64,000 nt of DNA from Candidatus Bathyarchaeota archaeon (GTDB lineage: Archaea; Thermoproteota; Bathyarchaeia; Bathyarchaeales; Bathycorpusculaceae). The position numbers were made by a program, and so were the translations under genes. The stretch spans positions 960,001 through 1,024,000 of the forward strand of contig CAWEPZ010000011.1 in assembly GCA_963811105.1 (NCBI GenBank), read 5' to 3'. Under the pieces are notes generated by a model. The model worked only from the letters and a program-made list of their open reading frames with translations. It had not been told where the DNA came from and made no database searches. Below are positions 2,640 through 56,775 of this stretch, one piece after another (position 1 is the first letter of the stretch; each line of letters begins with the position of its first letter).

Positions 2640-3053
2640 GATCGATAAGTTGTCAGCTTTTCTGCTTCAGATTCAAGGCCTCGATAATCGATGTAATCAG
2701 CTATGGGTCATGGTATACTTTGACGACCCAGATGATGCCTCGTAAGGGCAAAACATCAGTCTTATCCAAATTTGGCGTTTCAAGGCGCGGTTCAACGCTG
2801 CAACTAAGGTCTTGAGTTCTTCCTCAATTGAAGGCAACTCATCTGGCAAAACTAACTTATCAAAGGTAGTTGTTGATGGCGTGTTTTTTTCACCCTCATC
2901 AACAACTACTAAGCCTAAGCGAAATGCTTTCAACCGTACAGCAATAAGGGTTTTGCCCAGGACCTCTGCAATTGAACGCATAGACTTTTTTTCTGTTAAC
3001 CGTTGTCGAAGTTGACGTTCATCCTCAACTGTCCAAGGTTTGCCCCTCGCCAT
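2640..3053 (-). pseudogene. Frameshifted second copy of the MARGKPW Myb/HTH gene
   Basis: Highly similar to 1072-1524 up to LKTL. Homology (LDKTDVL, IDYRGLE) then continues in shifted frames down to ~2640. Confidence 0.75.
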
Positions 3054-3150
3054 TAAGATCTTGTCCAGCTGCAGACTTCTCAGGCAGTTGCTTTTTCGCT
3101 GATGATTCTGTTACCCGTGGTAAGAATCAATGTTTTTTCCCCACAAATAG

Positions 3151-3178
3151 CCCGATTATAATTCCGGTTATGCCTATC
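3151..3178. other. dif/Xer-like recombination site candidate
   Basis: CCCGATTATAA-TTCCGG-TTATGCCTATC has the 11-6-11 layout with an ATAA-N6-TTAT core and overlaps the right inverted repeat. Confidence 0.4.
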
Positions 3179-3352
3179 AACTGTTGTTGCTTGCGAGATT
3201 AGTCATCTATAACTTACTTACTGTATTAAGATAAGATATTTTTTCACTTTCACAGCTCCCTCTCTCCCCTGCATCCGGTAGTCATTTCTCAGATAGGTTA
3301 AAAGCAGTTTTTAGTCAACTCTTGGTTCCCCAATTAAAGTGAGATGATTGTT

Positions 3353-3469
3353 GTGGGTAAAACTGTTGAGTGTTATAGGATGGCTTTAGAAGGAGAAATT
3401 AGCCGTTGGGACGACTTTGCTAGAGCGTTGCGCATTGAGGATCGCTGCTTCAATCGCACTTTCTTGTAA
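3353..3469 (+). pseudogene. Fragment of a small conserved archaeal hypothetical gene
   Basis: GTG start, MGKTVECYRMALEGEISRWDDFARALRIEDR, then an abrupt stop after 38 aa. Confidence 0.4.
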
Positions 3470-3633
3470 AGGTTATTTGTTATTTCTCTAAAATATTCTG
3501 ATGCTTTGCTTTCATCGCTAAATAGGGTTGAAACTCTGGTTTTTTCTTCGTTTTCAATCTCTTCAATAATGTGTATTCAGGATTCTGATGTGATATATAA
3601 GAAGACTCAATATAATAATGTTATTCCAAAAGT

Positions 3634-34746: not shown

Positions 34747-37326
34747 CTATGCTTTTTTCCGTATCGCCATCATTATTAAAGCGCCGATTATAATGACTAT
34801 TATTGCTATTGCGATAACGCCTGCAACTATTGTCAGTGTATAGTCCGGTACTGTTATTGCTGGTCCTGTTGAGGTTGTTGCTGTGGGTGTTGTTTCTGCG
34901 CCAACTGAAACAGCAGTTGCTGCTGATGAGCTGCCGTAGGAGTCGTCCCCTGCAAATGTGGCAATTATCCTGTATGTGCCTTCAGTAGGCGGCGTCCAAG
35001 GCATTTCAAAGGTGCCGTAGTATGCACTTGTAGTTACGGTGCCGATTGTGATGGCGTTGTTGTTAGAGTCTATAGCTGTGAGTACAATTGGCACACCAGT
35101 CATCGTAGCATTGTGGTCAACACCGTCGATTGGATGCTGCATATGCAGATATTCCATCTCAGTAGCCATCGAATCCTTAGAGACGCATGGTGTGTTAGGC
35201 TGAGCAGGAGACAAATCAAGCACTGTGCCCTTTATCAAAACGCCTGTTCCTCGCGCAACCACTGTATCGGGTGCTGTCACTGTTGTAGCGGTTTTTCCTC
35301 TGCCGAAGACATACATGTATCCGTCATAAGAGTTTCCTGCAGTCATGTAGCCATCCGCAGTCGCGCCTGGAGCCATGCTGCCAGTAATGTTCCATATGCC
35401 CTGGCCTGTGGTTATGTTGATCGCGTGTAGCTTGTAGCCTCTGTAAATAGGTTGGTTTGGACTGTGCTCAGTGTTATAGGTGTATAGGACTCCGTCTGCG
35501 ATGACAGAAGTTCCGGTAAACCATGCATAGGAATCAACACCTGTTGCATCATTTGCATACGGTTGTTCATACGGGTATTCTGGCACGTATTGATACAGCC
35601 AGGCTACTTTTCCGTTGGTCCAGTTGTAAGCAGCGACTCCATCGTATTGATTTGCAATTATCATTCCTCCGTAGGATTGTACACCGTAGCAGCCGAAGCT
35701 TCCCCATGGCCAACTTGTCAAATCGCTTACCCATAGCTGTTTTCCAGTGTGGAGGTCCCAGCAATACCAATGTCCATCATTTAAGCGCACAGCGAATTTG
35801 CCGTGATCTGCGACTGAGGTGCTTGCACTGAAGAAGCCCCCTTCCCCCGTCGTTGTATCGGTTGTGATGTTGAATAGTAGTTGTCCTGTCGTCATGCTTG
35901 CTGCCATTATGCCTTGACCATATGCCACAACAAAGCCTGAGCCAACTCCTCCTGTACCCGGAGTAGTTATCGCATATGTGTTAACAGCAATAGCTGATTC
36001 ATAGTCAACAGTGCCTAAACTGCTGAATGGCCATGTAACGTTGCCCAGAACTTGAGGCCGCAGGTTGGTAGCACCTCCGAATCCAACGTCTCCTGTTATA
36101 GTCCAGTTGATAAGTCTATATTGAGTGCCAATAGTCTGTACTGTAAAGAATACAGGCCAACCGTCGGGTGTTTGCGCGTAGAATGTGCCGCTCGTGAATG
36201 GAGAAATTGAGATGTTGGCGATTACTGTTCCAAGCCACGGGTCATACCATATCAGTCGACTACTTCCCACGTACATAAGTCTCACAGACAATCCTGAATC
36301 TTCGGCGCTAGCGCCCGCGACAGTCACAGAAGTCCTTGTAATATAATTAATCATTGTTGGCACCTGGGTGACATTTAATTGGTCCCAATAAACTTGCCCA
36401 GTTTGAAGGTCGTAGCATTCCCAAACAGATTGTGCGTGGCCGTCTATCATTTTAGTCATGGTTTGATAGCATCTTCCGTCATAAATTATCGATGGTGTTG
36501 CTCCCCTGCCCGACAAGGATGTCAGCCCCATTGTTCCACCAATTACACCAGCTATAGCGTCTTGCCGCATCCAAACTACGTGTGCAGTTTTAGGTCCTTG
36601 AACATAAGGAGTGAACAAATAGTTGCTCATGTAGGTGTTTGTGTCTGCTGGCCAGCTTGGGCCGCCTCCAACAATGCCTGTAGCAGGATAGTTGCCCAAT
36701 ATCGACCACCATTCCCTGTTTTCAGGTGACACCGGTCTTGTCCAGTAGTCCGTCGGAAGAGGTGAACCTGGCCAACTTTGAGCAAGCGTATTGGTTACAG
36801 TTATAGTATATGGTCCGTCACTGCTTGGTTTGTAGTATACTGAATTGGTAAAGGTCGTGTTGGTTCCAAACTGGAATGATGCTTCGGTCGTGTTGTAAAC
36901 TCCTGCAGGGAAGTAGGCACCGAGGAAGTCAAATTTGATTGTCCAATTGCCAAGCTGATCCGGTACGTAATTGAACCATGCTGATACATCTCCAGGATAG
37001 GAGTTCAGTGGACCGATAGTATCTTTGGTACCGTCTGGCTTTGTGAATGTCACTACGTAAGCATTTTTCATGTATCTGACGACGTGAACTGGAGGTTGAA
37101 GCCAAAGGTTAACAATTACATTTTGTCCAAGCCCAATGGCATGCGGGTTGAAACTCAAGTGAGCGATTGTCTGGAATGATTCATCTGGAGTAACGCCTGT
37201 TGGTAATGGTATTGATCCGTTATCCTGTAGTGGTAAGCTTTGAGCTTGAATAATAGATGGTGTTGTCAACGCAAATAAAGATATCAAGAAAATAGCAATT
37301 ATAGTTTTCTTTGCTTTTCCAAACAT
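34747..37326 (-). CDS. Large PQQ-like beta-propeller cell-surface protein (paralog 1)
   Basis: Signal peptide, LPTDYWTRP..NREW, WDLHTGKQLW blades, EHSP..RG, PAQPNTPCVS..MEYLHMQ and C-terminal TM with RKK. Confidence 0.9.
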   Translation of the reverse strand: MFGKAKKTIIAIFLISLFALTTPSIIQAQSLPLQDNGSIPLPTGVTPDESFQTIAHLSFNPHAIGLGQNVIVNLWLQPPVHVVRYMKNAYVVTFTKPDGTKDTIGPLNSYPGDVSAWFNYVPDQLGNWTIKFDFLGAYFPAGVYNTTEASFQFGTNTTFTNSVYYKPSSDGPYTITVTNTLAQSWPGSPLPTDYWTRPVSPENREWWSILGNYPATGIVGGGPSWPADTNTYMSNYLFTPYVQGPKTAHVVWMRQDAIAGVIGGTMGLTSLSGRGATPSIIYDGRCYQTMTKMIDGHAQSVWECYDLQTGQVYWDQLNVTQVPTMINYITRTSVTVAGASAEDSGLSVRLMYVGSSRLIWYDPWLGTVIANISISPFTSGTFYAQTPDGWPVFFTVQTIGTQYRLINWTITGDVGFGGATNLRPQVLGNVTWPFSSLGTVDYESAIAVNTYAITTPGTGGVGSGFVVAYGQGIMAASMTTGQLLFNITTDTTTGEGGFFSASTSVADHGKFAVRLNDGHWYCWDLHTGKQLWVSDLTSWPWGSFGCYGVQSYGGMIIANQYDGVAAYNWTNGKVAWLYQYVPEYPYEQPYANDATGVDSYAWFTGTSVIADGVLYTYNTEHSPNQPIYRGYKLHAINITTGQGIWNITGSMAPGATADGYMTAGNSYDGYMYVFGRGKTATTVTAPDTVVARGTGVLIKGTVLDLSPAQPNTPCVSKDSMATEMEYLHMQHPIDGVDHNATMTGVPIVLTAIDSNNNAITIGTVTTSAYYGTFEMPWTPPTEGTYRIIATFAGDDSYGSSSAATAVSVGAETTPTATTSTGPAITVPDYTLTIVAGVIAIAIIVIIIGALIMMAIRKKA

Positions 37327-40861: not shown

Positions 40862-42361
40862 ATGACCGCCAACAAAATTCTAGGAAAAACTTTAATAATT
40901 TATCAGTTTAAGACATTCAAGGTGGTTTCTTTTTCAGTGCGTAAAATGAGCAAAAAACAACCTAATCAACTTAATCCACTTGCATTTAAAAAACACCCCT
41001 CTGAGCAATTGGACCACCAAAAAATTGCCCAATTAATACTTTCTCCGTTCATCCACTTGTTCAACATTAATGAATCGACGAAGTGTCTTTTCAATTCTTT
41101 AACTCTAAAGAAAGTGTACTTAACCAATGATAATTACACTAAGCTTTTAATAGATCTAAGTATGGGAAAACGTAGTAGAGACGTCAAAAGTTTAATCGAC
41201 TTGAAGTTTATAGTGCCTCTAGGCTTTGATGCGGAAAAAGTGTTTGACAGCGTCGCAAACAGCTTGCTTAGAAAGAAACCTTCGACCAACCTTGCGTACA
41301 TTTTGGTAACTGACTTCTGCAACTTCAGATGCGGTTACTGCTTCATAGAAAACTCTCTAAAGGGTCCTAGCATAGCAATGTCCAAGGATTTGGCAGATAA
41401 AGTCATTAACGTTTTGATCAACGAAGCAAAGCAAGTCCCAGAATATAGAGTTACATTTTATGGAGGAGAACCCCTAAGCATCAGCGAAATAGTCTTCTAC
41501 ATCATCAAAAAACTTGAGCAAGCATCTAAGGACAAATTCAAATTTTCTTGCGTTACAAACGGAAGTCTAGTAACCGAAGATTTAGCTAGAAAACTTAAAC
41601 AACACAACGTTACCGTAGGATTATCGCTAGACGGATGGGCCAACATTGACAAAAACCGTGTTTTTACCAATGGAAAAGAAACCTTTTACTCAGCACTTAA
41701 AGCGTTAGCTCTCCTAAAAGAAGCCGAGGTAAATGTTGGAATATCATGCACAATTACAAAACAGAACTACAAATACGCAGAGGAAATAGTTGAATTTATC
41801 CAAAAATTGGGAATCAGAACCATTGGTTTTAATTTGTTAACTAGACTCCAAGAGCCAAGTGAATTTGAGGTGCCAGACCCAAAACAACTCGCGCACCACC
41901 TCTTTGAAGCGTACTTAAAAGCAAACGAATTGCAAATGTTTGAAGATCGCATAGGCAATAGACGAGCAAACTATTTTTTCAAAGAAATATTTCATTTGTA
42001 CGATTGCCCCGCGTTTGGTCAACTAATATTCTTTTCGCCAGCTGGAACAGTGGGACCTTGCCATGCGTTCTATCCTTCAGGAAAACATCAAATTCCAATC
42101 AAAGATAATCTGAAAGTCCAAGAAGAACCATTGTTTTACAAATGGCTGGAAATTGGCACACTAAAGAATAAAGATTGCATGAGGTGTCCGGCCCTTGGAA
42201 TCTGCGGCGGAGGCTGCGCTTACGATATTTACGTTAAGACCGGTCAGCTTGGCATTAAAGAAGACTACTTCTGCGCTTTCCAGAATGAAATACTCAAGCT
42301 CCTGCTATCTTACAATTTCCTGATAAAACCTCAAAATAAACTTGGAAAAACGAAAAGTTGA
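40862..42361 (+). CDS. Radical SAM/SPASM-domain peptide maturase (likely start ATG 40946)
   Basis: CNFRCGYC, FYGGEP, TNG and SLDG core motifs. Seven-Cys SPASM: CPAF(x)G-TVGP-C ... CMRCPALGICGGGC ... YFC. N-terminal ~100-aa extension, possibly an RRE. Confidence 0.92.
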   Translation: MTANKILGKTLIIYQFKTFKVVSFSVRKMSKKQPNQLNPLAFKKHPSEQLDHQKIAQLILSPFIHLFNINESTKCLFNSLTLKKVYLTNDNYTKLLIDLSMGKRSRDVKSLIDLKFIVPLGFDAEKVFDSVANSLLRKKPSTNLAYILVTDFCNFRCGYCFIENSLKGPSIAMSKDLADKVINVLINEAKQVPEYRVTFYGGEPLSISEIVFYIIKKLEQASKDKFKFSCVTNGSLVTEDLARKLKQHNVTVGLSLDGWANIDKNRVFTNGKETFYSALKALALLKEAEVNVGISCTITKQNYKYAEEIVEFIQKLGIRTIGFNLLTRLQEPSEFEVPDPKQLAHHLFEAYLKANELQMFEDRIGNRRANYFFKEIFHLYDCPAFGQLIFFSPAGTVGPCHAFYPSGKHQIPIKDNLKVQEEPLFYKWLEIGTLKNKDCMRCPALGICGGGCAYDIYVKTGQLGIKEDYFCAFQNEILKLLLSYNFLIKPQNKLGKTKS

Positions 42362-42555
42362 AAGATTCACCCGTCTAAACACCAAAAAGCCCATAAAAAG
42401 CCCTTAGCCAAAAGAATCTAAGCAAACAATTGCTAATCAACAATTCAATAAATGAAAAAAAGATACAGACACATCTGACAGTTAACTTCACCCCAGATTG
42501 CCTGTACAATAAATATAAATAATTGACACTTCATACAACAATGTAGTGATTATTT

Positions 42556-43014
42556 TTGTCAAAAAATAAATCAAATCCTATAGCGCCCTCCAAAAACCCA
42601 TCTATCGCTCTATCAACAAAAAAATTGACCACAGCACAAAGCAAACGTTTACCAACAATCTTGGCACAAATACCACCTATCGAAAAACTGAATCCGGCCA
42701 TGTATGCAAAGCTGCAGTCAACTATACATGATACCGTAGCAAAAGCTTTGCCGGAATATCAGCAATGGATAAGCAAAACTATTGCATCGGATGGCCAGAC
42801 TCCGACTCCAGTGTGTAGCTCATGCGGAAACGACTGCCCAACACCACTTTGCAGTTCATGTGGAAACGATTGCCCCACACCTCTATGTAGCTCATGCGGA
42901 AACGACTGCCCAACACCATCAGCAACTAGAAAAATTGAAGACATGGTCAATGTGGCTGTCAACCAGGCAATGACCACGGCAATTCGTCAAGCTTTGGAAC
43001 AACAATTCAAATAA
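42556..43014 (+). CDS. Putative RiPP precursor with three tandem Cys-rich cores flanked by helical leader and follower
   Basis: TPVCSSCGNDCP TPLCSSCGNDCP TPLCSSCGNDCP; located between two radical SAM genes. Confidence 0.8.
   Translation: MSKNKSNPIAPSKNPSIALSTKKLTTAQSKRLPTILAQIPPIEKLNPAMYAKLQSTIHDTVAKALPEYQQWISKTIASDGQTPTPVCSSCGNDCPTPLCSSCGNDCPTPLCSSCGNDCPTPSATRKIEDMVNVAVNQAMTTAIRQALEQQFK
42805..42918 (+). repeat. 36-bp x3 coding repeat of the precursor cores
   Basis: Units start at 42805, 42841 and 42877. Differences are almost all synonymous (TGT/TGC, AGC/AGT, GAC/GAT, CCA/CCC/CCT). Confidence 0.95.
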
Positions 43015-43124
43015 GAAGCTGTTTTCCAATTGAGAAACGTAAACGCTCAAATGAAGAACAAGCAACAAAAATAGTCTACTGATTTGCACGATAAAAATCA
43101 GCAGCTATTCCAAAAAACAACATC

Positions 43125-43163
43125 AGGTAAGACCAGTTAGGCTGGTCTATTACCTCAGTTTTT
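43125..43163 (+). terminator. Stem-loop with T-run downstream of the precursor gene
   Basis: AGGTA-AGACCAG-TTAGG-CTGGTCT-AT-TACCT, followed by CAGTTTTT. Confidence 0.5.
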
Positions 43164-43328
43164 ATAAAATTAAAAAACGCTTCTCGTTAAATCTAACATA
43201 AAACTTTGGTTGTCCAATCGTTTAATATAGACACTATGATCCATGTTTCGTAATAATAAAGAACTTTAAATCATCCATGAGTGGCTTATTAGGAAGTCTT
43301 CCAAAAAAATATCTTAAAAGGGTTACAA

Positions 43329-44918
43329 ATGCCTGTATTTCTTTGCATCCCTCCAGTTTCTTCGTTGGTTCCTTATCCAGCAATTCCATACTTAACAAGT
43401 AGCCTGAAAGCAAATAATCAAAAGGTAAGTACCTTTGATCTAAACATAAACGCTTTTAATTTAACTCTTTTCCACCAAGGCGTTGATATTAAACCCGGGG
43501 AAATTTTACGTAAGAATAATCATGGAATAAAGGCGAAATGCGCAAGAGTTCCTGAGGCAAATCTTTACTCGACCATGCGAGAAAGCAAAGAAATTTTTGA
43601 ACAAATTATGTTCGAAGAGGCTTCTGATCAATTAAGTTATCCCTATTCGAGTCTACAGTCCAGATATATTATTAGCAAAGAATTAAAGCAGGCAATAATT
43701 TCGGATGTTTGGAAAATTTGTAATAATTGGTTTTTGGAAGTTGCCAATGATTCCAAAGAACAAAGTATTGTAGGATTTCATGTAATAAGTCAAACTGGAT
43801 TGATGTGGAGCATACTTCTTGCACGAAAATTAAAGAAAATTCTGCCCAAAATTTTGACAGTCTTGGGGGGTCCAGCATTCCTCGCATGGGAAGAAGTTCT
43901 CTCAGCCAATCCAGAAATTGACGTAATAGTTCGAGGGGAGGGTGAGGTCACAATTTCTGAGATAGCTAATTTGTATGACGGCAGTTTGGAATCAATAAAA
44001 GGAATCAAGGGAATTTATTACAGAAACGAGAAAGATAAAATTGAAACCAATGCGGATCGCCCATTAATAAAATCTCTTGACGCTTTGCCTTTTCCATATT
44101 ATGGTGATTTACCGTTAAAAGAATATCCTCAGAATAAGTTTGGAATGCCTATAATACCCGTTGTTGGTTCTAGAGGATGTATAGGAAATTGTGTTTTTTG
44201 CGTTGAAAAACGTTTATGGGGTAACACTTATCGGATGCGCTCACCAGAAAACATCGTTTCCGAGTTCAAAAACATTAAAGAAAAATATGGAACTTCTGTT
44301 ATTCGCTTCAATGACAGTTTGATAAATTGTAATATCAAATCTCTAGAAACATTCTGCAATTTATTGATTGAAGATAACATCAGAATGCAATGGATGGGTA
44401 ATGCTCGAATCCGACCTGAAATGACTGATAAATTGCTTGGGAAAATGGGCCAAGCAGGTTGCATAGGATTATGGTATGGCATAGAATCTGGGTCTCAAAG
44501 AATATTGCATAAAATGAAAAAAGGATATAATTTGGAAACCGCTAAAAATGTAATCCACGATACTGCTAGAAACGGCATTCGAGTTCTAATATTTATGATA
44601 GTAGATTTTCCAGGAGAAACACCAAACGATTTTAGACAGTCCGTTGATTTCTTAAAGCAGAATCAAGATTACATTGATCAAGTCAGCATTTCACGCTTTG
44701 GCGTCTTGCATGATTCAGAAATAGCTCTCAGCCCAAAAAAATATGGAATTGAAGTTATTAGAAGAAAAATGGGCGTTAATTACAGTTACATCTATTCACC
44801 TAGACCAGAGAGCAATCGATATGAAATCTTAGATTCAGCCTGGAAGCAATTAAGTATGCTAAAAAAAGCAAACCCAGCTAGAAATAATCGCGCAAAAATA
44901 ATCGTCCCATATTACTAA
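43329..44918 (+). CDS. Cobalamin (B12)-binding radical SAM protein (class B methyltransferase-like)
   Basis: B12 domain (LGGPA, RGEGE), SRGCIGNCVFC, RSPENIVSE, GIESGS and FPGET motifs. Confidence 0.92.
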   Translation: MPVFLCIPPVSSLVPYPAIPYLTSSLKANNQKVSTFDLNINAFNLTLFHQGVDIKPGEILRKNNHGIKAKCARVPEANLYSTMRESKEIFEQIMFEEASDQLSYPYSSLQSRYIISKELKQAIISDVWKICNNWFLEVANDSKEQSIVGFHVISQTGLMWSILLARKLKKILPKILTVLGGPAFLAWEEVLSANPEIDVIVRGEGEVTISEIANLYDGSLESIKGIKGIYYRNEKDKIETNADRPLIKSLDALPFPYYGDLPLKEYPQNKFGMPIIPVVGSRGCIGNCVFCVEKRLWGNTYRMRSPENIVSEFKNIKEKYGTSVIRFNDSLINCNIKSLETFCNLLIEDNIRMQWMGNARIRPEMTDKLLGKMGQAGCIGLWYGIESGSQRILHKMKKGYNLETAKNVIHDTARNGIRVLIFMIVDFPGETPNDFRQSVDFLKQNQDYIDQVSISRFGVLHDSEIALSPKKYGIEVIRRKMGVNYSYIYSPRPESNRYEILDSAWKQLSMLKKANPARNNRAKIIVPYY

Positions 44919-45098
44919 ACGAAGTTTCTTGTAAAGAGAATTTCTCCTTTTGCTTTTTTGTCGCTAAAGATGGTGATAGTTAAGGCAAAACGTACAGGAG
45001 ATTTCTGTTAACCACGTTTTTCAAGAGTCTATTAACAATTTTGCAAATCCTCATAAACATAAATAGCGGTACTTCATAAAAATAGAGTGCGATTATTT

Positions 45099-46272
45099 TT
45101 GTCAAAAGATAAATCCGTAAACAAAGCCCTCTCTAAAAAGTCTACAAGAACTGTTCCTAAGAAAAAATCAGATTCAGCTGGTTCAAAAAAAAGATTAACC
45201 AAGAAACAAAATGAACGCCCACATACACTTTTTGAAAAAAATCAACATTTTGAAAAATTGGATCCCGAATCTTATGCGAAACTGCAATCAACAATACATG
45301 AAGTCGTTGAAAAAACGATGCCCGAATACAAAGAATGGCTAAATTCTGCATTTGGCGAAAAAATTATTCCCGATGATTGTTCCAATGCCCGCCCAACACT
45401 TATCCAAAGGTGCCGCGTCTGTCCAAAAAATTGACGATATTGTAGTTGCTGCTTTCAACAAAGCTATGAAAGCAGTACGTCAAGCTTCGGAAGAAACTGA
45501 GCAAACGGAAATTATGGAAAAATGGTTCAAAAAAAAATTTTTTGACGACGTTTCTGACATACGACCTGAAAGCAGAAACTATTACAAACATTGCGTACAC
45601 AATTTCGTTACTCAATTTTTCTCCAAAGAAAAAATAGCTGGAAAAAGAATCCTCGACTTCGGATGTGGACCAGGATACTATTCCACGATTTTGGCCCAAC
45701 GCGGAGCAGACGTAACTGGAATTGACAGAAGTGCATTTCTTATTTACAAAGCAAACGAACTCAAACAAAAACTAGGACTTAAGAATATAGAGTTTTTTCA
45801 AGAAGATTTTCTTGATTTTGAGACAAATGCAAGGCCCAAAGAGTTTGATTATATCATAGCGATAGACACAATTGTGAGTTTTGACTTTTCCAGACAGAAG
45901 CATAACCATGAGGATTTCACTAAGGCATTGAGCAAAATCAGCAGAATTCTGAAAGATCAAGGTAGATTTTTTATAATTGAGGCGCATCCTTTTTTCGGTC
46001 AATTTGCTAAAGGAATAAAATTCTCAAGCGAAGGACATTTTCATGGTCGTTTATCTCATTATAAAATAGAATATAAGCGTAAAGATAATCCTAATCATTG
46101 GTTTACCCTTGACGAAATGACGAAGGCTCTTAATGAGAACTGTTTGGCAATTTGCAGGATTTATGAGCCTGATCCAAGTGTTGAATTGGAAAAAGAAAAC
46201 GCCCAATTATTCAAGTTTTTCCTGAAGTATCCACACATGATTGTATATGAAATATGCAAAGTGAGAAACTAA
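45099..46272 (+). CDS. Precursor-paralog scaffold fused (via a +1 frameshift near 45398) to a class I SAM methyltransferase
   Basis: ORF 45087-45434 carries the leader homolog EKLDPESYAKLQSTIHEVVEKTMPEYKEW. ORF 45352-46272 carries the follower homolog QKIDDIVVAAFNKAMKAVRQASEE, then ILDFGCGPG, VTGID, LKDQGRF and EAHP. Confidence 0.75.
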
Positions 46273-46535: not shown

Positions 46536-47484
46536 TTAGACTATTTTATCAGCCGCCATTTTCATTTTTTCCAAAATGAATCTCACTTTTTCGAGTGATG
46601 TCATTCCAAAGCCGCAATCCGGATGGATATACCTGATATTTTCTCTTCCGGCAGATTTCCTCAATTCTGTTATATCGCTCCATAATTATTCTCTCATCTT
46701 CAACATTGACGTTTGAGATGAACCCTACTCCAAGTTTCTTACCGTGCTCTTCCAGTGATGTCTTTGAGATGATATCCAAATTCTCTTTTTCTTCTTCTCC
46801 GCTAAATCCTAAACTTAAGATTGGAATATCAGAATCTAATAAGACATCATATAGATTCGGAACACTTTTTATTGATCCACAGACGTGACAGCTAACTTTT
46901 TCCTCTTTAATCGAAAAAGGTGGAAGATGCAAAGTAAAATCTTCCAAGATCTTTTTAGCAGACTCAAGAGAAACTCGCCCAGTTGAAAGCAAAGGTTCGT
47001 CAATCTGCACGTAAGCTCCAATATTAAGCGCTTCCTGCACTAGAGGTAAAAGGGCACGAGAAAAATCAGAAAACAAAGATTCTTCTTCGTCTAAATTATA
47101 ATGCTTCATTGTACTTTCCATATCCGCTAAAGCACAAGTAGTACCTAACGTCATTGGACCTGTAATTGTAATTTTGACTTTCACACTCTCTTTTCCTAGG
47201 CTTTCCAGGATTGATTTGACTCTTCTATAATCGTTAATCTTGTAGAACTCATCTATCTTGTCTCGTTTTATGGGTTCAATTTTTCCCACAATCTTCAAGC
47301 CATCGTCGAGTCTTTCTAGACCTGGAATTTGCTCAAAGTACTGAATCATGTTTCTTCGCAGTTCACCATCAGTTATCAGATCGATGCCGTAGTATAATTG
47401 CAAATCAACGATTTCTCTAATCGCATTTTCAAGAGGACGATCTGATTTAGGAAAACTTCCGACAACAGTTGTTTCTATTGGCAT
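46536..47484 (-). CDS. Cobalamin-independent methionine synthase catalytic-domain protein (core MetE-like), 1-nt insertion at ~46652
   Basis: TTVVGSFP, ITDGE, TITGPMTL, QIDEP and CHVCG motifs. Removing one base restores IAGRENIRYIHPDCGFG...MKMAADKIV*. Confidence 0.85.
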
Positions 47485-48055
47485 GAAAATAGTTAAATAA
47501 ACATAAATATTTAAACCGCTTGTGAGCAACTGTTCAGAACTGCTTCAACGTACAGTTTCAAGCTAAATTACACCTTTTGCTCCGTAAGTAGCTCCTGAAC
47601 TTGGCGCTCAATTTGGCATCTGATTTCTCGAACTTGTCTATGGGTTTCCTTTTGGGTCTTCAAGCTTCCATTCGATTGTTGGCCTGAAGAGCATTTTTGA
47701 CCCTCAATTCAAAACCGGCTGCCTAATTGATTATTGCTATCTGAACCTTTTTGACACATGATTGAATTTGTCGCTGACTTCAAAAAACCGGAAATAAAGA
47801 AAAGATCGGGCTTTGTTTTCGATAGATATTGGAAAGTAAGGAACGGGTGTTTGCAAGATTAGAAAAACACATAGCACATCTATCCTAAGATTTCGTTGGC
47901 ACTTATTGATTCCGTTGTCAAAGGCAAAATTATGCAAAGGTAGAAAGAAAGTTGCAGCTATCTATTTCTTAAAGAATACTTGAAAACCTAAGCCTTTTGC
48001 TAAAATTATCTTTGAACAAGAAAAAGAGGGAGATGTAATTTTATTGTTTGGGTGG

Positions 48056-50698
48056 TTATCGTTTTCTGAGTATCAGAATGGCTGTTGCGACTGAGAGGAT
48101 AACTACGATTATTATTGCGATTACTCCGGCGACTATGGTCATTGTGTAGTCTGGTGTTACGGATTGTGAAGCTGCTTGAGAAGGTGCCAATGTTGCTGCT
48201 GGACTAACTGCTATTGCTGTTGCTGCTCCTGAACTGCCATATGAGTCGTCTCCTGCAAATGAGGCAACAATTTTGTATGTGCCTTCTGTTGGTGGGGTCC
48301 AAGCCATCTCAAATGTGCCGTAGTATGCGCTTGAAGTTACTGTTCCGATGTTGATGACTTTGCCAGATGAGTCTATAGCTGTTAGTGTTACTGGTATGCC
48401 AGTCATGGTAACGTTGTGGTACATTCCATCTATTGGAATTTGCATGTGTAGGTATTCCATTTGAGTCGACATTGAGTCTGCGGAAACGCATGGCGTACCT
48501 GGTTGGGCTGGTGATTGATCCATAACTGTTCCTCGTATTAGCACTTGGGTTCCCAATGGTGTAGCGGTGTCGGGTGCCGTCACTGTGGTTTGTGTTAAGC
48601 CTTTGCCAAAGACGTCTAGGTAGCCGTCGTATTCATCGAGGAATGCGAGGTAGCCGTCTGATATTGCGCCTTCGAAGTAGCGTGAGCCTGGTACTCCTTG
48701 ACCCATGGTTATATTCCATATGCCTGCGCCTGTGGTAGCGTTAATGCAGAAGAGTCTCCAGCCTCTTGTAATTGGCTCGCTTGGCGTATGTTCACAGTTG
48801 AAGGTGAAGAGTTTTCCATCAGCCACGTAGCCTGAGCTGTGCCAGGAATAGTTTCCGCCATATGGTGTTTCAAATGGAGGTGCGGGTGCTGTGAAGGTCC
48901 AATCGATCTTGCCTGTGATCCAGTTGATCGCGTGGACTCCTGCGTAGTCATTGTCGAATATGTATCCGTAAGCTGATTGCACATCGTAAGCTCCGAAGAC
49001 TCCCCATGGCCATTCTGACAGCGGGCTCGTCCAAACCAGGTTCCCAGTCTTTAAGTCCCAGCAATCCCAGTCGCCGCCTAACAAGCGGACAGCTGCTTTG
49101 CCGTGATCGACAACCATTGGGGTTCCAAAGGTTTGTCCCCAGCCTGAACTAGTGTCTGTGGTTTTGTTCCAGAGGAGTTGTCCAGTGTATATGTTTGCTG
49201 CTTGTATGAATATGCCAACGTTTACTCCTAAGCCGGCTGAACTGATTGCGCCTGTGGTGACAGCGATTCCTGATTCATAATCAACTGTTCCCAGACTGCT
49301 AAATGGCCAAGAAATGTTGCCCCATATTCTTGCGGTGAAATTGTCAACAACTGTTTGCGCGCCTCCGCCGTGAACTTGCTCAGAGCCTGCGTTATTTGCT
49401 ATGGTCCAGTTGATTAAACGGTAGGTGACAGATGATCCTGAGCCGATTGTTTGTATGCTCAAGACCCATGGGTCTGCGTAGAATGTGCCGGTAGATACTC
49501 CGGAGGGGACTCCTGTGAAGTTTGAAACAACTGTGCCAGTTAAGGGGTCGTACTTGATTACTCGACCTGAATTTGAGCCTGACGCTCCAGTTATCGCTAC
49601 AAAGTATACTGATTCGCCTACTCTTGCTTCTGCGCCTGGAACTTCTGCGCCGCCTCGCTCATAGGTGATTATGGTGGGTATTGTTTCTCCAGTGGCTACT
49701 GGGCGTTCCCAGTATATCTTGCCTGTTTGCAGATCATAGCATCTCCATTCGTTGACTGCGCTAACTGTAGTAGGGTATTGCCATGTGCCGTTGATGTATA
49801 CTGGTTGTGTGGGTTCGCTTATGACTTCATAGCATCTTCCTGAGTAGATGATGGTTGGGTATCCACTTCCCGTTAATCCTCCGGCTGTCCAAGAGAGTTG
49901 TCCTGCTGGTCCACCGATGAGTCCGGCGATGAATGTTGGTCTTTGCCAGACTATGTGTGCTGTGTTTGGTGCTTGGACGTAGGGTGTGAATCTGTAGTTG
50001 CTCATGTATTTGTTGGTGTTTGCTGGCCAGTAGGTGCTTCCTCCAACAACGCCTGTTGGAGGCCAATTGCCTAATATTGGCCACCATTCTCTGTTGAAGG
50101 ATTCAGCTGGTCGTGACCAGTAATCTGTTGGTAATGCTGCTGGAGGCCAAGATGCTACCGCGTTTTGTTGCACTGTTACTGATACTTGAGGTGTTGTTGC
50201 TGGTTTGTAGTAGGCTGAGTCTAGAAATGCAGAACCGGATGTTCCGTTTTCGACGACACTTCCTTGGAGGTAGTATCCTGCGGGGTAGTATTGACCTAGG
50301 AAGTTAAATTGGAATTTGTAGGTACCGGCTGTGTCTGGGGTGTAGGGGAACCATGCTGTTGAGTCGCCTGCGTAGGATGATATTGGGCCTACAGTGGTGG
50401 TTGTTCCATCTGGTTTAGTGATTGTGACTGTGAATGCGTTTACTAAGTCTCTGTTTATGTTGATTGGAGGTTGAAGCCAGATGTTTACAAGTAACTCTTG
50501 CCCAACTCCGATTGGGTTTGGAGTGACATCAAGATAAGCAGTAGGAGTCACAGTAATGCTTGCAGTTACTCCGGCTGGTAAAGGTCCTGCTACTGGTTGG
50601 CTTAATGCTTTTACTGTCATTTTTGTCGTGGTTGCTATTACAGAAGCCATCAAAATGATTATGATAATTGCAGTTATCTTTTCACGATTTATTTTCAT
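48056..50698 (-). CDS. Large PQQ-like beta-propeller cell-surface protein (paralog 2)
   Basis: Same architecture and motifs as 34747-37326 (LPTDYWSRP, NREWW, EHTP..RGW, MEYLHMQ). Confidence 0.9.
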   Translation of the reverse strand: MKINREKITAIIIIILMASVIATTTKMTVKALSQPVAGPLPAGVTASITVTPTAYLDVTPNPIGVGQELLVNIWLQPPININRDLVNAFTVTITKPDGTTTTVGPISSYAGDSTAWFPYTPDTAGTYKFQFNFLGQYYPAGYYLQGSVVENGTSGSAFLDSAYYKPATTPQVSVTVQQNAVASWPPAALPTDYWSRPAESFNREWWPILGNWPPTGVVGGSTYWPANTNKYMSNYRFTPYVQAPNTAHIVWQRPTFIAGLIGGPAGQLSWTAGGLTGSGYPTIIYSGRCYEVISEPTQPVYINGTWQYPTTVSAVNEWRCYDLQTGKIYWERPVATGETIPTIITYERGGAEVPGAEARVGESVYFVAITGASGSNSGRVIKYDPLTGTVVSNFTGVPSGVSTGTFYADPWVLSIQTIGSGSSVTYRLINWTIANNAGSEQVHGGGAQTVVDNFTARIWGNISWPFSSLGTVDYESGIAVTTGAISSAGLGVNVGIFIQAANIYTGQLLWNKTTDTSSGWGQTFGTPMVVDHGKAAVRLLGGDWDCWDLKTGNLVWTSPLSEWPWGVFGAYDVQSAYGYIFDNDYAGVHAINWITGKIDWTFTAPAPPFETPYGGNYSWHSSGYVADGKLFTFNCEHTPSEPITRGWRLFCINATTGAGIWNITMGQGVPGSRYFEGAISDGYLAFLDEYDGYLDVFGKGLTQTTVTAPDTATPLGTQVLIRGTVMDQSPAQPGTPCVSADSMSTQMEYLHMQIPIDGMYHNVTMTGIPVTLTAIDSSGKVINIGTVTSSAYYGTFEMAWTPPTEGTYKIVASFAGDDSYGSSGAATAIAVSPAATLAPSQAASQSVTPDYTMTIVAGVIAIIIVVILSVATAILILRKR

Positions 50699-51682: not shown

Positions 51683-53461
51683 TCACAAATTTCTTATTCT
51701 CTTCTTGAATTCGTCATATGGAAGGTAGTTTTGTCCAATTGCAATCATGTTTAGTATCTCGTCAGGGTTCCTTCCTTGAAAAGAATATGAAGTTTCTAAT
51801 CCCACATTGGAACCAGCCGTTATCAAATTCGACGATTCCATAACATCTTCGTCATTCAGAATAGCCTGTGTATCTAATCCCCCGTTTCTATAAGCTTTTT
51901 CAAGGTAGTTGATTATCCGATCGCCTTTCACAAGCAGAACCGCACTTCTTCTGTCGATTCTCTGTCTCATTTCTCTTGCAAAACGATGAATTTTTAGCTC
52001 ATCCTCAACGTTGACCTCAGAGACAAAATCAAAAATACCAGACAATTCTTCAAATGTGTCCAGATTAGTCTCTTTTATGAAATTTCGAACCGCTGCCCTC
52101 AGGCTCTGCGAGAGAATTTCAGGATGGAAACGCCGAAGAATTTGATAGTAAAAATCAACCTGCATGTTAAAGTAGTGCAGACCATTGTCATTGAAATTCC
52201 TGTCGAAAAAGGCATAATTCGCGATCTTGTGGAATACTTCGACCTTTGGGTCTTTTATGCGGTAGTCAAATCCGAAATAGTCGCCGAGCAAGCGTCCCTG
52301 CGTGCGTAGTTTCTCTTCGAGCCCTGTTCCTGCGTAAGCTTCTGCCCGGCAGAAATTAAAGGGATTTTCTATATGGCGTTCCATAAAACGAAGGTTGATG
52401 AGTAAATCGTTCATGGTTGCATCGAGTTCAAACATCAAGAAGTTGAAAGCAACATGAACATCGAAGTCATTGAGAATCTGCAGCGCATTAAGAATGTCCC
52501 CGATTGTTTGTTTGCGGTTTAGGTTTCTCAAGCCGTTCTCAGAAGCATTTTCAACACCCAAGAATACTCGGAAAAGGCCAAGCTCATCAAGAACGGATAT
52601 AGATTCGCGGGTAATGCTGTCAGGTCGAGCCTTCACGGCGATTGCGATTTTTTCAACTCCATTTCTTTTCAGCTCGTCCCGTAATTCCTTGAAGCGTTGC
52701 AGGGTTTGCTGGTTGTCGGCAAGAAAGAAGTTGTCATCGTGGAAGTTGAAAATTCGAATGCCGTATTCAAAATAAAGTTGCTTCATCTCGGCAACGATGT
52801 TTTTTATGCTGCGGACTCTGAACTTCTTGCCTCCTTGGTGTTCATACCATGCGTTTATGCTACAGAAAGCACAGTTCCGCCAGCATCCCCTACTGCTCAG
52901 TATGCCCGCAATCGGCTTGTCGAAGTACTTGTTGAATGTTGTTCTTTTCGGAAATGGCAGTGCGTCCAGGTTTTCCTGCTTAATGCCAGGTGAACATCTT
53001 ATTGTTCCTTCAGTCCCCCTAAAAGCTAAGCCGGGAACATCTTCCAGTCTGTCCAAACTCTGAGCCAGCTTACAAAGCAGCAGTTCGCCTTCGCCCAGGC
53101 CGACCGAACTAAAAGCAGGAAAGTCCTTTAGCAGTCTTTCGTAGTTGAAAGAAGCAAAATGCCCTCCAGCAACTATATGTCCCTTGTAACCTGCGTCCCT
53201 TAGCCTCTGTGCCAGGCTGCAAAATTCTCTTGCTCTGCCTGTAAACACCATGGACAATGCCGTTATTTGCGGGTCTGTCTGAATGATTTTTTCTACTACT
53301 GAGGAAATCTCGGCTTGAGAGTTGAAAGGTACGATTTGTGTCTCTATGCCGACTTGCTCTAATGAAGATGCCATGTACCGAATGCCGATGTTTTCCTCTA
53401 ATTCTGCGCCAACAAGGGCAACTTTCACCTTATCCCCCCAATCAAAGTGTCTAAAGTGCAA
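51683..53461 (-). CDS. Cobalamin (B12)-binding radical SAM protein (likely start GTG 53428)
   Basis: ENIGIRY, AGGHFAS, GEGE, SSRGCWRNCAFC, FHDDNF, RPD and LGVE motifs; long C-terminal extension. Confidence 0.92.
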   Translation of the reverse strand: MHFRHFDWGDKVKVALVGAELEENIGIRYMASSLEQVGIETQIVPFNSQAEISSVVEKIIQTDPQITALSMVFTGRAREFCSLAQRLRDAGYKGHIVAGGHFASFNYERLLKDFPAFSSVGLGEGELLLCKLAQSLDRLEDVPGLAFRGTEGTIRCSPGIKQENLDALPFPKRTTFNKYFDKPIAGILSSRGCWRNCAFCSINAWYEHQGGKKFRVRSIKNIVAEMKQLYFEYGIRIFNFHDDNFFLADNQQTLQRFKELRDELKRNGVEKIAIAVKARPDSITRESISVLDELGLFRVFLGVENASENGLRNLNRKQTIGDILNALQILNDFDVHVAFNFLMFELDATMNDLLINLRFMERHIENPFNFCRAEAYAGTGLEEKLRTQGRLLGDYFGFDYRIKDPKVEVFHKIANYAFFDRNFNDNGLHYFNMQVDFYYQILRRFHPEILSQSLRAAVRNFIKETNLDTFEELSGIFDFVSEVNVEDELKIHRFAREMRQRIDRRSAVLLVKGDRIINYLEKAYRNGGLDTQAILNDEDVMESSNLITAGSNVGLETSYSFQGRNPDEILNMIAIGQNYLPYDEFKKRIRNL

Positions 53462-54367: not shown

Positions 54368-55279
54368 GTGCCTTCCCAACAAAAATTGGCGATGACGCTG
54401 TTTTTTGGAAAAAGTCCTGCCTGCCGGTTAGAAAAAATTTATAAATATTTTGCCATAAATAGGGAGCGGTTGGCTGATAATTTGGGGAAGGTTACACGAA
54501 CTGTTTCACCCTCAATATTCTTTTTGCTCACATTCATTCTTTCATGGTCTATTTGGATTTCCTTGATTCTTGCTTCTTCCCAGATTTCTGAGGGCTTAAG
54601 CAATATTGTGAGGCTATTTGGCGTTTTGATGCCTGCTATATCTGCTATCATTCTTACAGCTTACTGCGCTGGTCGGTCTGGAATTGGGCATTTATTTTCT
54701 CGGTTGAAGATTTGGAAAGTTGGAGCTAAATGGTGGATAGCTGTCATTTTTGTCTATCCCGTTTTGCTTGTTATAGCTGGTTTGCTTTACAACTTGTCTA
54801 ATCCACCGTCAATGGTAAACCTTCTCCCTATAACCGCCGGCAGTCTCATAGCAAACGGCATTTTCCTTACAATAGCTGCGTTAGGAGAAGAAATCGGTTG
54901 GCGTGGTGTCGCTTTGCCTGCACTGATGAAAAAGCTCTCGCCTCTCATGTCAAGTTTGGTGTTGGGTCTTTTGTGGGCGGCATGGCACTTGCCGTTTTGG
55001 CTTCTTATCGGCACTCTTAGTCAATACGGATGGGCGTATTTCGTGATGAATTTCTTGTTCATTGTTCCAACTACATTCTTCATTACTTGGTTTTTCAATA
55101 ATACCAAGGGAAGTATTCTTCTTCCAGTTATTTTTCACGTTGTTTTTAATGTAGTAAATGTTGCAATCTATCCTGTCACAGGATCAGCTGAGGCTTTCGG
55201 AATCTTTATAATACTTCAGTTTGCAATTATGTTTGCAATTATTCCCTCCCTTAGAAAATCCAAAGCCTCTGACGTTTGA
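54368..55279 (+). CDS. CPBP/Abi (CAAX-like) intramembrane metalloprotease
   Basis: GEEIGWRG, WAAWHLP and FHVVFN motifs; multiple TM segments. Confidence 0.9.
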   Translation: MPSQQKLAMTLFFGKSPACRLEKIYKYFAINRERLADNLGKVTRTVSPSIFFLLTFILSWSIWISLILASSQISEGLSNIVRLFGVLMPAISAIILTAYCAGRSGIGHLFSRLKIWKVGAKWWIAVIFVYPVLLVIAGLLYNLSNPPSMVNLLPITAGSLIANGIFLTIAALGEEIGWRGVALPALMKKLSPLMSSLVLGLLWAAWHLPFWLLIGTLSQYGWAYFVMNFLFIVPTTFFITWFFNNTKGSILLPVIFHVVFNVVNVAIYPVTGSAEAFGIFIILQFAIMFAIIPSLRKSKASDV

Positions 55280-55345: not shown

Positions 55346-56775
55346 CAGTAGATGGAAAAGTAGTTTTTGGATATTGATGCTTTGTTTATCCTGTCGTAAC
55401 CGATTATCAAGCGGCAGGGTCTGAGGATTGCTCTTTCATTGCACAGTTTTATATCTTCAGACTTCTATAGCAAATTAACTGGCGGAGTTTAGGGTTCGAT
55501 CTACCCGGATCGGCTTCCTCGAATGCATCCAAGAATGCTTTAGTGTCGAGGTGGCCCTAACCCGCCAATGATAAAGCCTTCAAAGTGCACAGCCAAACGA
55601 GTCAACGTCAAAAGTGGTTTACCAAACTGTTTCTTTAGAGCTCTGCAGAGCAAAAAATTAGCGTAGTGCCAAACATTGTACAGTACCACAGAAGTCATTT
55701 GGTAAATTAGTCTAAGCTTATAGTTGGTGCTTGTAGTTTTAGCCTGGGCATTATCTTGCACACGATAACCCGTTTCTATACCCCACCTGCGCCTGTACTC
55801 AGAAGGAATAAACAATGGCAACTTAATTGCTAATGACCTTGGAAGGTTTGTTGCAAAACCAAAATAGAGGTCAGAAACATTCAGCTTCTTCTTTTTCGGC
55901 AACTGCTCAACTGACCGCTTGTAAAGATACAGGGTAAAGCAGATGCTTTTCCTTTTGTTGCCTAAAATGAAACGTTTAGCTGACTGCTTGTCATCATAAT
56001 TTAGCATCGCTTCTTTGACCGTATCATGCTTAACTGCTGGAATAATAAAATAGACCTCTAACCTCTTGAGCGTAGCTATGACGTCTATTGTGAAGAATGC
56101 TCGGTCAAGCAGTACAATGCTAATGTGTATGCCGCGTGCCCTCGCTTCAAAGATTAGTTTCTCAACGACCTCTGCTTTCTCACTGAACTGGTTAACAGTA
56201 CTAGAATAGACTGTAAGTCTTCTTCCCGCTTCAACAATGTCAATGCTAGCATATGTATAGCCCCAGGTCGTTCCATTCTCCTGTTTGCCACCTATCACGT
56301 TTTTAGCGTCGGGATCACCATAGAAGGGCTGCCTTGTATAGTCGATTGCAACCACCGCTTTTCTTCTAAAGAGGCAGTGGCTTCTTAGGATAAGGAGAAT
56401 CTGGTCGTTGGCTTGGATTAATGCATTGCGAATTTGCTTCTCCGCTAAGCGCTCTATTCTTCCTCTGAAGGTTCTTCCCGTGGGAACCTTGTTTGGTGTG
56501 TTGCATTTTTCTGAGAGGTCAGCTAAGCCACTTTCAGCGTAGCTTTGAGAAAGTGAGAGCTGGATTAGACATTGATTTATGTCGCTGCTGATGTAGAGGC
56601 TGTTTTTAGCTACTGGAAATTGAAGATATTCGTTAAGCAAGTTGGCTGTGAACTTGAAGACTTTGCTGGAAACCTTTCGCTCTTTTGATTTACGTTTTGC
56701 CGTCTGAACACAATATCTCAATTATACGCACTAAGATAATATTATCAAACGTTTAAGGTACTTTTCCATCTACTG
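55346..56775 (-). mobile_element. Complete insertion sequence, ISH3/IS4-like, 1430 bp
   Basis: Perfect 17-bp TIRs CAGTAGATGGAAAAGTA (55346-55362 and 56759-56775); 5-bp TSD ACTTT at 55341-55345 and 56776-56780. Confidence 0.95.
55540..56721 (-). CDS. DDE transposase, ISH3/IS4 family
   Basis: VAIDYT, LLDRAF and YRRRWGIETGYR (Y-REK-type motif). Confidence 0.92.
   Translation of the reverse strand: MRYCVQTAKRKSKERKVSSKVFKFTANLLNEYLQFPVAKNSLYISSDINQCLIQLSLSQSYAESGLADLSEKCNTPNKVPTGRTFRGRIERLAEKQIRNALIQANDQILLILRSHCLFRRKAVVAIDYTRQPFYGDPDAKNVIGGKQENGTTWGYTYASIDIVEAGRRLTVYSSTVNQFSEKAEVVEKLIFEARARGIHISIVLLDRAFFTIDVIATLKRLEVYFIIPAVKHDTVKEAMLNYDDKQSAKRFILGNKRKSICFTLYLYKRSVEQLPKKKKLNVSDLYFGFATNLPRSLAIKLPLFIPSEYRRRWGIETGYRVQDNAQAKTTSTNYKLRLIYQMTSVVLYNVWHYANFLLCRALKKQFGKPLLTLTRLAVHFEGFIIGGLGPPRH

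Follow-up and report, generated by a model that had tools for sequence, protein, structure and literature searches.

The DNA analysed here is a 64,000-nt window (the term is used below for this whole stretch) of a Candidatus Bathyarchaeota archaeon, contig CAWEPZ010000011.1 of assembly GCA_963811105.1, positions 960,001-1,024,000, and its positions 40862-46272 hold four genes, all on the + strand, which may together make and modify a Cys-repeat protein. The first gene encodes a radical S-adenosylmethionine (SAM) enzyme with a SPASM domain (40862-42361, +; an open reading frame, ORF, of 499 aa), and the second, the putative precursor gene, a 152-aa protein made up of a basic N-tail, a conserved helix, an array of Cys units and a conserved C-terminal helix (42556-43014, +). 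They are followed by a class B (B12-binding) radical SAM enzyme of 529 aa (43329-44918, +; Pfam and NCBIfam) and by a gene that joins a precursor-like domain to a class I SAM-dependent methyltransferase (45087-45404 and 45406-46272, +). An initial annotation had described these four co-oriented genes as a candidate cluster for a peptide made on the ribosome and modified after translation (RiPP), with a full seven-Cys SPASM domain in the first enzyme, three tandem Cys units in the 152-aa protein and a B12-binding domain in the second radical SAM enzyme, and family searches and alignments bear out this gene content. The fourth gene does contain both of the parts that the annotation had named, but it is really a natural fusion, split here by one extra base. 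The arrangement goes beyond chance, as 22 of 27 independent loci have the genes in this order.

The 152-aa protein carries TPVCSSCGNDCPTPLCSSCGNDCPTPLCSSCGNDCPTP. Tandem Repeats Finder reports a period of 36 and 2.8 copies in its gene (42817-42918), and the whole array (42805-42918, +) comprises three 12-residue units (CSSCGNDCPTP[LV]) that hold 9 Cys, i.e. 5.9% of the 152 residues. As the initial annotation had suspected, the family is not a recognised one: no Pfam or NCBIfam family matches the protein, and a look-up in the ESM Atlas with the precursor returned no usable match. No N-terminal hydrophobic stretch of the signal-sequence type was seen in the translation when judged by eye. A word-seeded search retrieved 130 homologues of 83-266 aa, among which the only two informative source names are both Candidatus Bathyarchaeia archaeon. 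When a profile of the N-terminal domain (N-domain; 39 sequences) was compared with 1.84 billion representative proteins, 17 matches were obtained at E<=0.001, two of which are unrelated repeat proteins, and the family amounts to about 15 clusters at 50% identity.

In an alignment of 34 members the proteins share a four-part architecture, namely a basic low-complexity N-tail, a conserved segment (PPIEKLDPxxYAKLQSTIxDAVAKTLPEYQQW), the unit array, and a conserved C-terminal segment (AVNEAMxGAIRQAL). The array varies from one to five units per homologue and the flanking segments are better conserved than the unit number; both segments are modelled as helices, at low confidence, in a homologous fusion protein. 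The unit itself reads C-S-[SA]-C-[GS]-N-[DQ]-C-P-[TV]-[PEQ]-[LIV] over 276 units from 120 proteins, its three Cys and the Pro being fixed by the search pattern. The Asn is present in 270 of the 276 units; the residue after it is Asp 211 times, Gln 62 times and Glu twice, and the motif C-[GS]-N-[D/Q/E], i.e. C-X-X-D/Q/E, occurs in 275. Cys spacings within the units are 2, 3 and 4 residues, and the units abut directly, with no recognisable cleavage motifs between them. Two representatives (P0124 and P0127) have variant Cys cores between unchanged flanks. The window's own genome also holds an orphan precursor of 165 aa with about four units, of a 'KKWLNS' subtype, on contig C10 (53253-53723; L004:9733-10230, - strand). 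It lies about 34 kb from a second SPASM paralogue (genome G000, C10:18438-19838; L035:6439-7839), which may act on it in trans.

The first enzyme matches Pfam Radical_SAM (PF04055) with 76.7 bits, and its CX3CX2C motif (C125, C129 and C132 in the numbering of a 471-aa protein) is invariant in all 17 aligned orthologues. That numbering starts at the Met encoded at 40946, probably the true start (471 aa), because most homologues begin at the corresponding Met, with the sequence MSKKQS. The NCBIfam model of the SPASM domain, TIGR04085, is matched over its whole length (positions 1-93 of 93) with 46.5 bits against a cutoff of 27, and seven C-terminal Cys (C354, C372, C411, C414, C420, C424 and C443), the number expected for two auxiliary 4Fe-4S clusters, are likewise invariant in 17/17 orthologues. 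A Pfam scan of the C-terminal 143 aa matched no family even at E<=10, so that the SPASM assignment is based on TIGR04085 together with the alignment. Among the curated NCBIfam families the enzyme scores best with FibroRumin (TIGR04136, 179.6 bits, residues 61-478 of 499), followed by PapB (NF047865, 149.8), CefB (124), QhpD (108) and SCIFF (99), and these best family matches are all peptide or protein maturases, as the initial annotation had supposed, with the thioether formers PapB, SCIFF and QhpD prominent among them. Of the families labelled in the library as forming thioethers or maturing Cys-rich peptides, PapB and CefB score best, and the library name of FibroRumin records no reaction. 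The anSME families score 107 and 68 bits, the cyclophane-forming maturases (AmcB, GrrM/OscB, YhhB and FxsB) 66-106 and CrpC (TIGR04463) 90. The curated cutoffs of FibroRumin (400), PapB (340) and CrpC (525) are all missed, as are those of QhpD and SCIFF, and since the enzyme falls below every specific family cutoff it is to be regarded as a maturase of no named family.

The best solved relative of the SPASM enzyme is 5wgg_A (E 3.9e-22), with anSME chains next; we take 5wgg_A to be the CteB entry, as its sister entry 5WHY is so named in PMC13692751. For residues 1-146 of the enzyme a Pfam scan lists nothing but Cybc1_Eros, with 13 bits (E 0.092; cutoff 27), and the N-terminal domain alone has one family match, to the start of TIGR04136, with a weak 13.7 bits (E 0.02). 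An AlphaFold2 model of the whole enzyme has a mean predicted local distance difference test score (pLDDT) of 49.7, with the N-terminal and SPASM parts below 50, and is of too low a quality for use. A complex prediction for the enzyme and the precursor, made with family alignments, scored 0.01 against a mark of 0.32, which is no evidence either way.

The third gene product combines an N-terminal B12-binding domain (PF02310, 34.8 bits, cutoff 32.1) with a radical SAM domain (PF04055, 60.7 bits), the combination that places it in class B. Its best NCBIfam matches are ApyD (159 bits), HpnJ (149) and the RiPP C-methyltransferase family TIGR03975 (147.6), all of them below their cutoffs (750 for ApyD and 281.85 for TIGR03975).

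The ORF 45087-45434 of the fourth gene encodes a paralogue (39% identity, E 5e-20) of the 152-aa protein's N-terminal part and is overlapped in another frame by the ORF 45352-46272, whose first residues match the C-terminal helix of the precursor (46% over 28 aa) and whose remainder is a class I methyltransferase (Methyltransf_31, PF13847, 83.9 bits against a cutoff of 27). At 14 loci the two parts form a single intact ORF of 363-402 aa, in the order N-tail, helix (KLDPEIYAKLQSTIxEVIEKTLPEYKEWLNS), linker (KIIGNDxSNGSLQNID), helix (VVSAVNKAM...) and methyltransferase, and the glycine-rich SAM loop DFGCGPG is invariant in 14/14 fusions. The N-domain is strongly conserved across the intact fusions and the linker is short and degenerate; a linker Cys is found in some members only and is not conserved among the 14, so that the fused domain is unlikely to be a second substrate for crosslinking. 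Within a collection of 5.8 billion proteins, 47 of the 70 longer N-domain homologues carry class I methyltransferase Pfam domains, mostly at a length of 367 aa; the N-domain was seen with no further fusion partner among these 70, the remaining 23 being long precursors. A weakly resolved tree of the N-domain (76 columns) has a supported clade (99/97) of the cluster-type precursors and places the fusion domains with the orphan-type ones. A model of the fusion has a mean pLDDT of 57.7, and 75-94 in the methyltransferase domain, the core of which is its one confident part.

Between the residues DDCSN and KIDD the window has 1 nt more than the intact gene of locus L010, and this extra base (a CC at 45404-45405, +) splits the fusion into its two overlapping ORFs. 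The translation of 45087-45404 (frame 0, the precursor-like N-domain, ending ...DDCSNARPTLI) and that of 45406-46272 (+1 frame, KGAASVQKIDD..., with the homologue of the C-terminal helix, KIDDIVVAAFNKAM, ahead of the methyltransferase) join in register with the intact fusions. We consider an indel in the assembly to be the likelier cause, with fairly good confidence. Contigs from two sequencing runs of related strains (X2 and X3) are 1 nt shorter at TTAT-C-CAAAGG and in frame; the run contigs are short and fragmentary and only those flanking 45404/45405 were used, each run contained at most 31% of the sampled words, so that none is shown to be the window's own strain, and no RNA run was among those listed. 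An A6 run at 45425-45430 was rejected as the site of the shift, since record 4 of run X1 is gap-free over 45405-45549 and L006 lacks the run.

That the split is real here, making the gene a pseudogene, two functional overlapping genes or the site of a programmed +1 frameshift, is possible but seems to us the lesser prospect. L006, with proteins 72-84% identical, also has 1 nt more in this short stretch and L029 has 2 nt more, both being likewise out of frame; the window and L006 both have a +1-frame ATG (from GATGAT) at which a separate methyltransferase could begin, and the 0-frame codon at the aligned position is AGG in both. Against a real split stand the 14 loci with an intact fusion, the shorter, in-frame contigs of the related strains, and the conservation past the shift of the +1 frame, and not of the 0 frame, between the window and L006. 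Moreover, these records commonly show indel-type breaks, scattered over different positions (the SPASM gene is split in 7 loci, the B12 gene in 5 and the methyltransferase in 3), and the alpha-amylase gene of the window (21724-23609, +) also looks split into two overlapping ORFs, with a catalytic domain at 21724-23337 and C-terminal amylase domains at 23157-23609, which makes it a second candidate frameshift.

In order to follow the linkage of these genes, one genome per species was scanned, which gave 27 loci in 19 genomes; 26 of the loci have the title Candidatus Bathyarchaeota and one has the title Candidatus Sulfotelmatobacter. By tblastn with the window proteins, 22 of the 27 loci have a full SPASM gene directly upstream of the precursor, the B12 radical SAM gene is present at 18, the methyltransferase at 19 (with one further, degraded copy at L030), and six loci have a second precursor gene. 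Each of the 19 genomes has a SPASM-linked precursor at one or more loci, and where a full SPASM gene is missing (five loci) the genome has a full cluster elsewhere. The conserved linkage of precursor and radical SAM genes foreseen by the initial annotation therefore held for the SPASM enzyme and not throughout for the B12 enzyme, which 4 of the 22 SPASM-linked loci do not have, and methylation by it would for that reason be an accessory step. Precursor homologues away from radical SAM genes, which the annotation had seen as telling against its reading, do occur (four stand alone and one is beside a SPASM remnant), yet always in genomes with a linked copy. When ORFs of at least 60 aa from the 27 loci and the window were clustered, the only families common to 15 or more loci were the cluster genes and their antisense shadow ORFs, and no protease or transporter family appeared among those shared; the annotation had noted the lack of a dedicated protease or exporter in the window, and the same is true of the cluster at large. 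In 300 other genomes of the same class, 14 of them of the same genus, no member of the precursor family was found, and the SPASM enzyme had one match at E<=1e-30 (32% identity, one genome); these 300 are a sample and do not prove absence elsewhere. The module is rare and patchy, its enzyme and substrate travel together, and it is confined to a small group of a few soil and peat Bathyarchaeota. The one locus with a Candidatus Sulfotelmatobacter title (L025, a 10-kb contig) has two tandem SPASM paralogues upstream of the precursor (1344-4423) and neither a B12 radical SAM enzyme nor a methyltransferase, and its title may be a binning error.

Taken together, we consider it somewhat better than an even chance that the four genes form a module, complete in itself and particular to a few Bathyarchaeota, that matures a cytoplasmic Cys-repeat protein. 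Gene order and co-occurrence make a strong case that the Cys-repeat protein is the substrate of the SPASM enzyme, and it is with moderate confidence that we propose thioether (ranthionine-type) links as the product of that enzyme, because of its best curated matches, its relationship to 5wgg_A (CteB), the C-X-X-D/Q/E units, and the precedents of PapB and CrpC. The substrate, of about 150 aa, would present one to five 12-residue units (D/Q-C-P-x-x-x-C-S-S-C-G-N) between two helices; in each unit the conserved Asp or Gln (or the Asn) would lose a hydrogen from a side-chain carbon to the SPASM enzyme, which would then bond this carbon to the sulfur of a Cys, so that the C-X-X-D/Q motifs come to carry ranthionine-type thioether staples. 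Where they are present, the B12 radical SAM enzyme and the class I methyltransferase would add methyl groups, at targets that can be suggested with weak confidence. The methyltransferase's copy of the flanking helices, with its degenerate, Cys-free linker, may be a docking or recruitment domain, a role for which our confidence is weak to moderate; it would pair with the helices of the substrate or occupy the same site on the SPASM enzyme. The linker might conceivably be methylated itself, in the manner of the borosins. The product would remain a protein, neither cleaved nor exported, and a modified protein is indeed the more likely product than a released peptide, given that the Cys units lie between conserved helices and that no protease or exporter is linked to the cluster. 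The initial annotation had raised the same possibility, and the absence of any conserved protease or exporter gene favours it.

These proposals can be joined into a more speculative picture, of which we are much less sure, in which the target is recognised by substrate mimicry and the end product is a thioether-stapled, methylated mini-domain. The helix-linker-helix module of the fusion might co-assemble with the substrate helices in a mixed bundle, or compete for the docking site on the SPASM enzyme, and would in either case bring a tailoring enzyme to a protein-sized substrate that needs no RiPP recognition element (RRE). The mini-domain would be displayed between the two helices in an anaerobic archaeal cytoplasm, where staples would replace disulfides covalently, and it might bind a metal through the two Cys left free in each unit.

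Several observations weigh against the reading of the cluster as a thioether-forming maturation module. The precursor stands alone at 4 of the 27 loci (L013, L014, L017 and L028) and at L027 only a SPASM remnant accompanies it, while the window's own genome has the second SPASM paralogue, 71% identical, with no precursor adjoining it. Within the 22 SPASM-linked loci the methyltransferase is missing from two, in addition to the four without the B12 enzyme, so that neither step is obligatory. The type of reaction is an extrapolation, every specific maturase family scoring below its cutoff, and anSME, at 107 bits, does about as well as QhpD or SCIFF; its reaction is an oxidation and not a crosslink. 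No RRE or other leader-binding domain was detected in the SPASM enzyme, the N-terminal 117-146 aa of which have no significant Pfam match. The helices of the fusion N-domain are modelled at low confidence (pLDDT 54-62), and the CxxCG and CP motifs of the units look like metal-binding knuckles.

An alternative that we regard as unlikely but not negligible is that the SPASM enzyme does act on the Cys-repeat protein but with another chemistry, such as an anSME-like oxidation of Cys, a C-C or C-O crosslink, or an epimerisation. The scores of anSME (107 and 68 bits) and of the cyclophane formers (66-106) fall within the range of the thioether formers, and with every score below cutoff no reaction can be assigned from family membership. 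However, the units have neither the aromatic residues used by cyclophane formers nor the C-x-P-x-R motif of sulfatases, and the best families with a labelled role are PapB (thioether) and CefB (Cys-rich peptides). Furthermore, an Asp, Gln or Glu three positions past a Cys is the type of acceptor described for PapB (PMC9413430) and CrpC (PMC13692751). That the pathway is instead a classical multi-core RiPP, in which an unlinked protease would cut the array into identical thioether peptides to be exported, for example as antimicrobials or signals, appears improbable to us. In its favour, the tandem identical units resemble multi-core precursors and vary from 1 to 5 between homologues, and an Rce1/CPBP-type membrane protease is encoded 8 kb downstream in the window (54368-55279). 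This Rce1-like gene is not among the shared families, though, and no protease or transporter family is conserved over the 27 loci; nor do the abutting units offer a recognisable site for cleavage, and the helices before and after the array are both better conserved than its length.

We see still less of a case for the Cys-repeat protein being a metal or Fe-S partner of both radical SAM enzymes, i.e. a cluster donor, electron carrier or metallochaperone, and not their substrate. The CxxCG and knuckle-like C-P motifs, together with the Cys spacings of 2, 3 and 4, do resemble metal sites, and the orphan precursor copies lie away from the enzymes. The authors of the work on CrpA also suspect that their modified protein binds metal (PMC13692751). 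On the other hand, the family occurs only in genomes with a SPASM gene (19/19), its gene sits in the position of a precursor, directly after the maturase, and the copy of its flanks in the methyltransferase is easier to explain if the protein is a common target of the enzymes. Metal binding and modification can also coexist, and a role in metal binding alone would leave unexplained the strict co-occurrence with the maturase and the substrate-like domain of the methyltransferase.

Two TATA-like A/T-rich boxes were found by aligning upstream regions, one about 35 nt 5' of the precursor start (42508-42522, +) and one 5' of the fusion gene (45053-45066, +). The precursor, the fusion gene and the C10 orphan precursor all have the conserved block ATAAA(T/C)ATAAATA upstream, and these boxes may act as promoters. 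In the 314-nt spacer that follows the precursor gene there is an inverted repeat, AGACCAG...CTGGTCT, with a T5 run after it (43128-43175, +), which could attenuate read-through into the B12 radical SAM gene; a terminator scan did not flag it.

As for the surroundings of the cluster, a short MetE-like gene (46549-47529, -; cobalamin-independent methionine synthase catalytic domain, 46.3 bits) converges on its end and was set aside as a cluster member, being shared only with the near-identical locus L029. Further on, the segment 50935-53461 (-) contains a second B12-binding radical SAM gene (51683-53461, -; 592 aa) and, directly downstream of it, the gene of a 244-aa protein with four (W)xEPAH/Q motifs. 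This protein matches no Pfam or NCBIfam family and has 489 homologues in bacteria and archaea, with sources that include Geobacter, Syntrophorhabdales and Methanosarcinales. These two genes may be another pair of a B12 radical SAM enzyme and its substrate, and were also set aside as members of the cluster, since they are near it in L029 and L031 only and belong to a much wider family. The gene for the Rce1-like (CPBP) intramembrane protease (+ strand, Pfam 50.6 bits) begins about 900 nt past the second B12 radical SAM gene and is followed by a DDE transposase (55540-56721, -). Three paralogues of about 860-880 aa (34747-37326, -; 48056-50698, -; 56879-59497, +) have a PQQ-like beta-propeller, immunoglobulin-like domains and a C-terminal hydrophobic anchor. 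Relatives of the beta-propeller proteins lie near the precursor loci L013, L021, L027 and L028, and a fragment of one abuts the orphan precursor on C10; this recurrence may merely reflect a large paralogous family.

To our knowledge, very few cases of enzymatic thioether crosslinks on whole proteins have been documented, and the Bathyarchaeota, abundant and uncultured as they are, have almost no characterised specialised biochemistry. If the proposed function is correct, it would add to protein thioether crosslinking an unrelated substrate family, a different architecture, in which two conserved helices enclose the Cys units, and two extra tailoring enzymes, and a function would be assigned to a conserved Bathyarchaeota gene set. 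The natural fusion of a substrate-like domain with a tailoring enzyme would also suggest a recruitment mechanism that has not been described for RiPP-like systems. With four genes and a substrate of 150 aa the system is small, and hence directly testable by heterologous co-expression.

In regards to published systems, a literature search on Bathyarchaeota or Bathyarchaeia with radical SAM RiPPs or ranthipeptides found, supplements aside, no description of the substrate family, and in a broader search the Crp paper alone was relevant by title or abstract among the matches listed; in a further one, none of the best matches listed mentioned Bathyarchaeota. That a Cys-rich protein is matured by a radical SAM/SPASM enzyme is a known theme, within which the cluster has two unusual features: a Cys array placed between conserved helices, and a methyltransferase fused to a Cys-less copy of the presumed substrate's flanks.

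The fusion of a methyltransferase with a precursor-like domain is shared with the borosins. The methyltransferase of the cluster is of the class I Rossmann type, whereas that of the borosins belongs to another fold class. Borosins of the OphMA type likewise are natural fusions of precursor-derived sequence with a SAM-dependent methyltransferase (PMC7878506), but in them the core, which follows the enzyme at its C-terminal side, is the part that becomes methylated, whereas here the precursor-like part is N-terminal, its Cys is not conserved, and the separate true substrates are encoded beside the fusion. For the B12 enzyme the best curated match is ApyD, at 159 bits far below the cutoff of 750, with HpnJ (hopanoid) and BchE scoring similarly. 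ApyD C-methylates the C-beta of Tyr to give beta-methyltyrosine, and its cluster also holds a separate methyltransferase, as is the case here; many other reaction types are known for its family (PMC10635010).

Of the SPASM families, FibroRumin is the best-scoring one, yet at 179.6 bits it is well short of its cutoff of 400, and as no literature was found on FibroRumin/TIGR04136 the match says nothing on chemistry. PapB, the second-best match (149.8 bits against 340), joins Cys to the C-beta of Asp or the C-gamma of Glu and accepts C-Xn-D motifs with n = 0-6, a tolerance that covers the C-X2-D of the present units (PMC9413430). PapA, its substrate, also has repeated Cys-Xn-Asp motifs, but it is a leader-core peptide with C-X3-D motifs (PMC9413430), and it differs from the Cys-repeat protein, which has three Cys per unit, an alternation of Asp and Gln, a conserved follower helix and a protein-sized product.

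Among published systems the nearest precedent is CrpA/CrpC of Methanococcus voltae, described in September 2026 (PMC13692751). In both systems an archaeal seven-Cys SPASM enzyme adjoins a Cys-repeat protein of more than 100 aa with C-X-X-D/Q and C-P-x-x-hydrophobic motifs, the product is read as a modified protein, and, as far as the available part of the Crp paper goes, no protease or exporter is assigned. CrpC modifies the motifs CAVD, PCAGD, CAGM and CPLVL in the 28.8-kDa CrpA. A second protein in each system shares the N-terminal region of the substrate, the methyltransferase fusion here and CrpB there; CrpB shares the first 47 residues of CrpA and its co-expression raised the extent of modification (PMC13692751), a suggestive parallel to the recruitment that the fused domain might provide. 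The differences are nevertheless considerable. The SPASM enzyme of the cluster falls outside TIGR04463 (90 bits against a cutoff of 525), and the two substrate families are unrelated. The Cys units of CrpA are C-terminal, of 17 aa and in 10 copies, and those of the cluster lie between two conserved helices, with 12 aa and 1-5 copies. Archaeal proteomes were filtered in the Crp study for a Cys content of 10% or more (PMC13692751), a threshold that the present substrate, at 5.9%, would presumably miss. Finally, the cluster belongs to Bathyarchaeota and not to methanogens, and it adds to the common plan of the two systems a B12-binding radical SAM enzyme and a methyltransferase.

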